Shown here in pieces: positions 36,530 to 36,798 of a DNA stretch of 64,000 bases. The notes beneath the pieces were generated by a model that saw only the letters and a list, made by a program, of their open reading frames with translations, was not told the DNA's origin and made no database searches. The position numbers and the translations under genes are program-made. Origin of the DNA: Escherichia coli (GTDB lineage Bacteria > Pseudomonadota > Gammaproteobacteria > Enterobacterales > Enterobacteriaceae); assembly GCF_003334335.1 (NCBI RefSeq), contig NZ_QOWQ01000023.1; one strand, written 5' to 3'. How positions within the stretch are numbered: position 1 is the stretch's first letter; each line of letters begins with the position of its first letter.

Positions 36530-36642
36530 AGCAGTACCTCCTTCACAGTGGCGAGCTTCCTGTATAACGCAAAAATGTGACGGAGATCTATATTTTTTGT
36601 GTATGTTTTGTTCAACCTGGATTTGGAGCGCGCCTCCACCAA

Positions 36643-36697
36643 AGCCGGATATACCTACCCGTAGGCCGGATAAGCCGCGCCTGGCGGCGCATCCGGC
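36643..36697. repeat. REP element in the psiE-yjbT divergent intergenic region
   Basis: GTAGGCCGGATAAGCCGCGCCTGGCGGCGCATCCGGC preceded by partial GCCGGATATACCTAC. Confidence 0.8.
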
Positions 36698-36798
36698 AAG
36701 ACAAACCGCACTAAAGCCGGTAATTCAAAAATCACCCATTCAGGTGATTCCCAGCCACCAGCAATGCGCGAAAAATCGACAATGTTCCTCTGGAACAA

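Follow-up and report, generated by a model that had tools for sequence, protein, structure and literature searches.

The REP units of Escherichia coli are short palindromic sequences (~35-40 nt) with a consensus that runs from a GCC(G/T)GATG head to a CTTATC(C/A)GGCCTAC tail, and the presence of G, not T, in the head (GCCGGATG as opposed to GCCTGATG) identifies the Y-type palindromic unit (PU). Two or more alternating PUs make up a BIME. In BIME-1 (RIB/RIP), the IHF-binding class, an L motif with the IHF consensus lies between Y and Z1 units, and BIME-2, composed of reiterated Y-Z2 pairs, is a high-affinity gyrase site; as a group, REP/BIME elements bind gyrase, Pol I and, in BIME-1, IHF. When located between tandem genes, such hairpins end or stabilize the upstream transcript. 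In MG1655, ~40% of REPs have been assigned to spacers between tandem genes, ~60% to convergent and ~1% to divergent spacers in a 2026 preprint that also reports REPs as terminators and decay blocks (bioRxiv 10.64898/2026.03.23.713779).

In this work we analyze a REP located between the divergent genes psiE and yjbT, within a 64,000-nucleotide stretch of E. coli DNA (contig NZ_QOWQ01000023.1, assembly GCF_003334335.1; hereafter, the window). The divergent context is genuinely rare but already recognized, and the element is of a known kind. Our analysis makes it reasonably probable that a resident repeat pair was left in a divergent spacer by the gain of yjbT and is now decaying, with little or no regulatory effect.

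Layout of the spacer and identity of the repeat

The window is the reverse complement of MG1655 4212854-4276853 (MG1655 position = 4276854 minus window position) and is K-12-like, with a handful of SNPs and one 98-bp indel. With psiE encoded on the minus strand and yjbT on the plus strand, positions 36530-36798 constitute a divergent intergenic spacer (Table 1). The REP that the preliminary description placed there, at 36643-36697, is present and its span correct to within one base; it corresponds to MG1655 4240157-4240210 and comprises an intact Y-type unit with a variant apical stem (PU1) and, inverted relative to it, the stump of a second unit (PU2).

Table 1. Coordinates of genes and sequence features at the psiE-yjbT locus (window positions)
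Feature	Position	Strand	Sequence or remark
xylE	34600-36075	+	
psiE coding sequence	36119-36529	-	
Conserved psiE promoter/regulatory block	36560-36612	-	AACAAAACATACACAAAAAATATAGATCTCCGTCACATTTTTGCGTTATACAG; from column conservation
Candidate psiE -10	36566-36561	-	TATACA; proposed assignment
CRP-like half-site (candidate)	36581-36576	-	GTCACA; proposed assignment
PU2 stump, inverted relative to PU1	36644-36658	+	GTAGG fused to TATATCCGGC (psiE-sense strand)
PU1, intact Y-type REP unit, variant apical stem	36661-36697	-	GCCGGATGCGCCGCCAGGCGCGGCTTATCCGGCCTAC
Hairpin with T5 run	36727-36752	-	GGGAATCACCTGAATGGGTGATTTTT; directly upstream of the REP on the psiE-sense strand
Perfect palindrome	36783-36797	+	TGTTCC-TCT-GGAACA; immediately upstream of the annotated yjbT start
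yjbT, annotated	36799-37077	+	
yjbT, likely true start	36829-37077	+	ATG 36829; annotated start 36799
GC-rich hairpin, 11-bp	37083-37114		between convergent yjbT and yjbH stops
yjbH	37124-39220	-	

PU1 stands in canonical orientation on the psiE-sense strand, where it is followed by a GG spacer and by GTAGGTATATCCGGC (36658..36644). It matches the REP consensus, has the G of a Y-type head and aligns over its full length with the other 16 REP units of the window. The tail 14-mer, of which PU1 carries an exact copy, has 17 matches in the 64-kb window at no more than two mismatches, as compared to 0.17 expected, and none of 100 shuffles reached 17, so that the REP identity cannot be ascribed to chance. 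PU1 is thus part of a multi-copy dispersed family and, lying between psiE and yjbT, it is extragenic; the position 3′ of a gene that is typical of REPs, although not strictly defining, does not apply to this divergent spacer. In PU2, GTAGG is joined to (C)ATCCGGC and ~20 nt of the interior are deleted. The 70 nt at 36636-36705 fold with a minimum free energy of -34 kcal/mol on the minus strand (z = -2.6) and of -27.2 kcal/mol on the plus strand.

As regards BIME structure, this locus holds one unit and a 15-nt stump in the window, and the full pair is found in four other Escherichia species. The IHF consensus WATCARNNNNTTR is absent from both strands of 36530-36830, and the 2-nt inter-unit spacer and the absence of a Z unit set the locus apart from BIME-1; a single Y unit with a Y-type stump likewise lacks the reiterated Y-Z2 pairs of BIME-2. 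Without an IHF consensus or a Z-type partner, the spacer contains no representative of the BIME classes established as strong binders of IHF or gyrase, which speaks against the gyrase or IHF effect put forward in the preliminary description. Judged from its sequence, the element is a real Y-type REP unit with the collapsed stump of an inverted partner, the remains of a two-unit tail-to-tail BIME. Near-identical copies of PU1 occur at a median of one place per E. coli genome, with no second copy, and this variant unit would therefore be an old resident and not a recent insertion.

The remaining seven REP loci of the window (alr/tyrB, ubiA/plsB, lamB/malM, malE/malF, pgi/yjbE, yjbB/pepE and aceA/aceK) all lie downstream of a gene or inside an operon, as had been stated beforehand, and the REP tail motif occurs in none of the other 11 divergent spacers of the window. 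In the aceA-aceK spacer (~58279-58516), the BIME array has five REP units, as compared to three in MG1655; the 98-bp insertion amounts to one more Y-Z pair, and no other indel was found when the window was compared with MG1655.

Two open reading frames annotated or read across this region were discarded. PGAP annotates in many REP-bearing genomes a 47-aa hypothetical protein (WP_000487761.1; 36655-36798, minus strand) that runs across the REP and is missing from REP-less strains; it is almost certainly spurious. A 67-aa reading frame antisense to yjbT (36740-36943) was considered as yjbS, which would have put the REP in the yjbS 3′ UTR, but yjbS lies between tyrB and aphA.

Several features of the surroundings vary among strains. 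Position 36712 is T in the window and C in MG1655, and the 170-bp stretch around it has an exact match in no complete genome of the collection, the best match being 99.4%. Not all strains have xylE, the gene on the far side of psiE: of 5426 complete E. coli genomes, only 3636 are matched by a 401-bp probe from within this accessory gene. Its place is empty in EC958, 22AR0747, EC42405 and the four other Escherichia species, where malG directly adjoins psiE, and several Citrobacter and a Klebsiella oxytoca have xylE at the same spot.

Flanking regions and inferred promoters

When the 200 nt that precede psiE are aligned for 79 Enterobacteriaceae sequences, they delimit a conserved block from ~36612 to 36560, with column conservation mostly at 70-99%, that collapses upstream of 36615. 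The REP stump begins 31 bp beyond the ~36612 edge of this block. On the opposite side, the yjbT-proximal block (36727-36830) is invariant across five Escherichia species save for two E. albertii changes in the T5-flanked hairpin, and the REP, upstream of it, falls outside both conserved blocks.

Transcription of psiE reportedly begins at one site only, 7 bp past the -10. Of its two pho boxes, which are placed at the -35 region and upstream of it, the downstream one is said to be overlapped by a CRP site. If so, start, pho boxes and CRP site would all fit within the conserved block, where the candidate pho boxes match their consensus poorly. A sigma-70 consensus scan of 36000-37200 returned no site at 9/12 or better, so promoter positions can only be proposed; the candidate for yjbT is a weak putative 8/12 match (TTCCCA at 36748-36753 and AAAAAT at 36771-36776, separated by 17 nt). 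Entries for psiE, yjbT or the locus coordinates are absent from the supplements of SMRT-Cappable-seq, Adams 2021 and Kim 2012. From the pattern of conservation, the weak yjbT match and the promoter layout reported for psiE by Kim et al. 2000, we infer that the REP precedes the two promoters, with each putative start ~90-145 bp away, and is part of neither leader. Its effect on the expression of psiE or yjbT is most likely little or none, and a modest quantitative effect may be compatible with its dispensability in nature.

The preliminary description further took psiE to be Pho-regulated. Older footprinting indeed puts psiE in the Pho regulon. Microarrays in O157:H7 agree in showing a 20-fold induction of psiE by phosphate starvation (PMC3978041). 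PhoB ChIP-seq and RNA-seq in MG1655, on the other hand, found neither PhoB binding nor PhoB-dependent regulation at psiE (PMC10294691); the premise is therefore itself disputed. With the literature in conflict, the membership of psiE in the Pho regulon is unsettled.

The product of yjbT belongs to the Pfam family YjbT (PF17089, E = 1.5e-65). The start annotated for yjbT (ATG 36799, 92 aa) probably precedes the true one by 30 nt. The downstream ATG at 36829 has a good Shine-Dalgarno sequence (AAGGTGG, 36817-36823) and yields a product, MKPYFAAL..., whose N-terminus resembles a signal peptide; the equivalent Met is also where P0008 and P0009, two homologues of 82 aa, and the gene of Kluyvera georgiana begin. 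The perfect palindrome that precedes the annotated start is invariant in five Escherichia species and is kept, as GTTCCAGGGGAAC, before the 52%-identical K. georgiana homologue; it could be an operator or a 5′-leader hairpin.

The hairpin with a T5 run contains the DNA palindrome ATCACC-N6-GGTGAT (36731-36748), folds at -11.4 kcal/mol (z = -3.3) and is kept in every Escherichia allele; E. albertii differs at two positions, which preserve the stem and add a C-G pair at its top. Its predicted fold resembles a terminator for transcription antisense to yjbT. The GC-rich hairpin beyond yjbT has a predicted fold of -22.7 kcal/mol (z = -3.5) on one strand and of -24.2 kcal/mol (z = -4.7) on the other; it probably acts as a terminator in both directions, at which the yjbEFGH operon now stops.

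Alleles and proposed origin of the repeat

A 170-bp megablast query that contains the REP was covered at 80% or more in 3236 of 5426 complete E. coli genomes, and the REP-less allele typified by EC958 was covered to the same extent in 2143 (about 40%); both counts depend on these coverage thresholds and on a database in which clinical lineages are overrepresented. The full inverted Y-type pair, tail to tail, is present in E. whittamii, E. albertii, Escherichia sp. E1V33 and Escherichia sp. MOD1-EC7003, which share the PU1 variant and have a complete second unit (GTAGGACGGATAAGGCGTTCACGCCGCATCCGGC); the tail-to-tail spacer is the 2-nt GG in three of these species and has an extra 14 nt in E. 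whittamii. Unit 1 is retained and PU2 collapsed in each REP-bearing E. coli allele that was examined (those of the window, 22AR0747, 48956 and 23CRST035). In the REP-less alleles of EC958, EC21Z-048 and JNE12-007, the first ~13 nt of unit 1 (TTGCCAGATGCGACGTT) are fused to the distal flank GATGGGAG. Since these alleles retain the start of unit 1, they represent a derived deletion with a scar and not an empty target, and the same junction in the three variants suggests one old deletion event. Aligned with one another, the alleles outline a clear decay series, from the full BIME through the collapse of PU2 to a 13-nt scar.

The psiE and yjbT blocks are unchanged in every one of these alleles, REP-less ones included. 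With the REP outside both blocks and deleted in so many genomes whose flanks remain as they were, the proposal that it affects the expression of psiE or yjbT does not hold up well. A single genome of the 5426, EC42405, is without both yjbT and the REP (L003, 3131-3250); there, yjbH is followed by an unrelated hairpin with a 13-bp stem (GCGCCGAATAC...GTATTCGGCG) that adjoins the psiE block, as in other genera.

To place the locus in a wider context, a PsiE scan of the genome collection provided 80 species loci. In 35 of them yjbH (33) or pgi (2) lies directly upstream of psiE, co-directionally and with a gap of at most 400 bp, and beyond the promoter block 29 of these 35 tandem spacers fold at -15 kcal/mol or stronger, with 13 of the 35 carrying a recognizable REP tail motif. 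The REPs in tandem spacers are found at -100 to -180 from the psiE ATG; that of E. coli spans -132 to -168. Other genera have unrelated palindromes in the slot, and a few have very short spacers. The Citrobacter BIMEs resemble that of Escherichia in their (+,-) order, in the two nucleotides, GG, that separate the tails and in a second unit of the E. coli type. Leclercia (pgi-BIME-psiE, with no yjb operon) and Enterobacter (yjbH-BIME-psiE) have near-identical BIMEs despite their different upstream genes; the repeat thus stays with the psiE side. Between REP and promoter block, the sequence of Escherichia does not align with that of Citrobacter, and the orthology of the psiE-side repeat across genera is argued from position and architecture, not base by base.

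Among the 80 species loci, yjbT appears only in Escherichia species and, at 52% identity, in K. georgiana, and a protein search indicates that the YjbT family is almost confined to Escherichia. The distant homologues P0012 and P0013 come from assemblies with fragmented neighboring genes and are uninformative. In Citrobacter, Kluyvera, Kosakonia and some Enterobacter (L012, L014, L019, L020, L034 and others), the yjbH-psiE spacer contains other opposite-strand genes, with inserted reading frames of ~150 aa, acyltransferase-like with hexapeptide repeats as judged by eye, and of ~175 aa. The variety of these small genes identifies the junction as a recurrent site of small-gene gain. Where such genes have been inserted, the REP has stayed next to yjbH and is missing from the divergent spacer that borders psiE. 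The yjbEFGH operon is itself variable: only a 3′ fragment of yjbH follows pgi in Escherichia sp. MOD1-EC7003 (L061, 1-1900), and the operon is absent, with pgi upstream of psiE, from Leclercia, Shimwellia, Klebsiella and Raoultella loci (L025, L060, L075 and others).

The origin that we favor, with moderate confidence, would start from an ancestral BIME in the usual tandem slot, 3′ of the upstream operon (yjbH or pgi) and just outside the psiE promoter. Gained in opposite orientation, yjbT would have been placed between yjbH and the repeat; it has a terminator hairpin, which it shares with yjbH. As yjbT sits on the far side of the repeat, the latter would have been stranded between divergent genes. 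The collapse and loss of the repeat in E. coli would fit relaxed constraint; as the full BIME persists in four Escherichia species that have yjbT, the new context does not lead to decay automatically.

Alternatively, the REP might have been inserted anew, for instance through RAYT-mediated spread, into an existing yjbT-psiE spacer in the Escherichia ancestor, and would then not be a relic of the yjbH or pgi 3′ end. The K. georgiana locus fits this interpretation equally well, with a yjbT-like gene and psiE adjacent and divergent, no REP between them and a REP right after yjbH; so do the failure of the psiE-side REP flank to align with Citrobacter or Enterobacter and the known turnover of REP content in orthologous spacers. 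We nonetheless regard it as unlikely, since a REP or BIME adjoins the psiE block in many genera, where both the orientation order and the 2-nt tail-to-tail spacer match those of Escherichia, and, as Leclercia and Enterobacter illustrate, whatever the upstream gene. The lack of a sister copy of the PU1 variant elsewhere in E. coli genomes also argues against it, and, with ~1% of REPs in divergent spacers, direct insertion into one is improbable a priori.

The stranding of a resident pair could also be extended to its function. In such an extension, which we consider doubtful, the repeat pair would have been a long-lived boundary element, retained beside the psiE promoter in different genera because it blocked read-through from any upstream gene (yjbH or pgi) into a weak promoter that depends on an activator; in Escherichia it became redundant once yjbT had arrived with its terminators, and is now decaying. 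Were this the case, the REP-bearing (~60%) and REP-less (~40%) alleles would amount to a natural experiment on REP function, and phylogroup-specific differences in psiE or yjbT expression might follow.

A present-day role of that sort seems improbable to us. The REP and the T5 hairpin would together form a 3′ end or insulator that stops yjbH read-through or antisense transcription across yjbT and shields a weak, activator-dependent psiE promoter. PU1 is canonical on the psiE-sense strand and directly downstream of a conserved terminator-like hairpin, REPs are reported to terminate transcription and block decay (bioRxiv 10.64898/2026.03.23.713779), and a structured element occupies the slot in 29 of the 35 tandem-context species. 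Set against this are the ~40% of E. coli genomes that do without the REP, the strong hairpin already in place between yjbH and yjbT, the absence of a documented antisense transcript at the locus and, as a weak negative, a Term-seq supplement with no entry for psiE, yjbT, yjbH or coordinates beginning 42401-42403.

It is very improbable that the REP modulates the psiE or yjbT promoters through gyrase or IHF binding, local supercoiling or a structured leader: its place midway between divergent promoters, where supercoiling coupling could matter, the known affinities of REP/BIME elements and a presence/absence polymorphism that could in principle yield strain-specific expression are outweighed by a single Y unit with neither Z partner nor IHF consensus nearby, its location outside both conserved blocks, a deletion in 2143 genomes with no compensating promoter change, and the unrelated palindromes or very short spacers of other genera.

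Significance and relation to known repeat systems

The importance of these observations is limited, in that the K-12 REPs are catalogued and a divergent minority has already been reported. What they add is the explanation of one exception through the probable gain of a gene beside a resident repeat, and not through the insertion of a repeat into a promoter, together with a decay series that can be followed in situ at one locus, from the full pair to a unit with a stump and on to a 13-nt scar. The naturally polymorphic site could show at little cost whether a REP that is not part of a transcript has an effect, and the case cautions that REP position alone is poor ground for regulatory meaning.

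Among known systems, there is a weak resemblance to REP325/naRNA4 (Rfam RF02564), of which the psiE-yjbT REP is not a member: these matches, the only ones to Rfam, score 27.3 and 24.4 bits against an Rfam gathering threshold of 59.5, and arise because naRNA4 is itself made of REP units. The E. coli Y-type REP/PU (Stern 1984; Gilson, Bachellier and colleagues) resembles PU1 as a CTAC-tagged imperfect palindrome with the GCCGGATG head and the CTTATCCGGCCTAC tail that is extragenic, forms a stem-loop and occurs in multiple copies (17 in the window). PU1 departs from it in its apical stem, CGCCGCCAGGCGCGGC instead of the common GCGGCGTGAACGCC, in lying between divergent genes instead of 3′ of a gene and in lacking a near-identical sister copy. 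As in a minimal BIME, two inverted units lie tail to tail at this locus in four other Escherichia species, and in E. coli the second unit has collapsed to 15 nt; both units are Y-type, with a 2-nt spacer, neither the L motif and IHF site of BIME-1 nor the Y-Z2 reiteration of BIME-2, so that the pair falls into the "atypical" BIME class. The intercistronic REPs of malE-malF and aceA-aceK belong to operon transcripts and influence mRNA stability or polarity, whereas the psiE-yjbT REP is probably not transcribed in E. coli; they nevertheless belong to the same sequence family and have the placement, after the upstream gene of a tandem pair, that the psiE slot shows in other genera.
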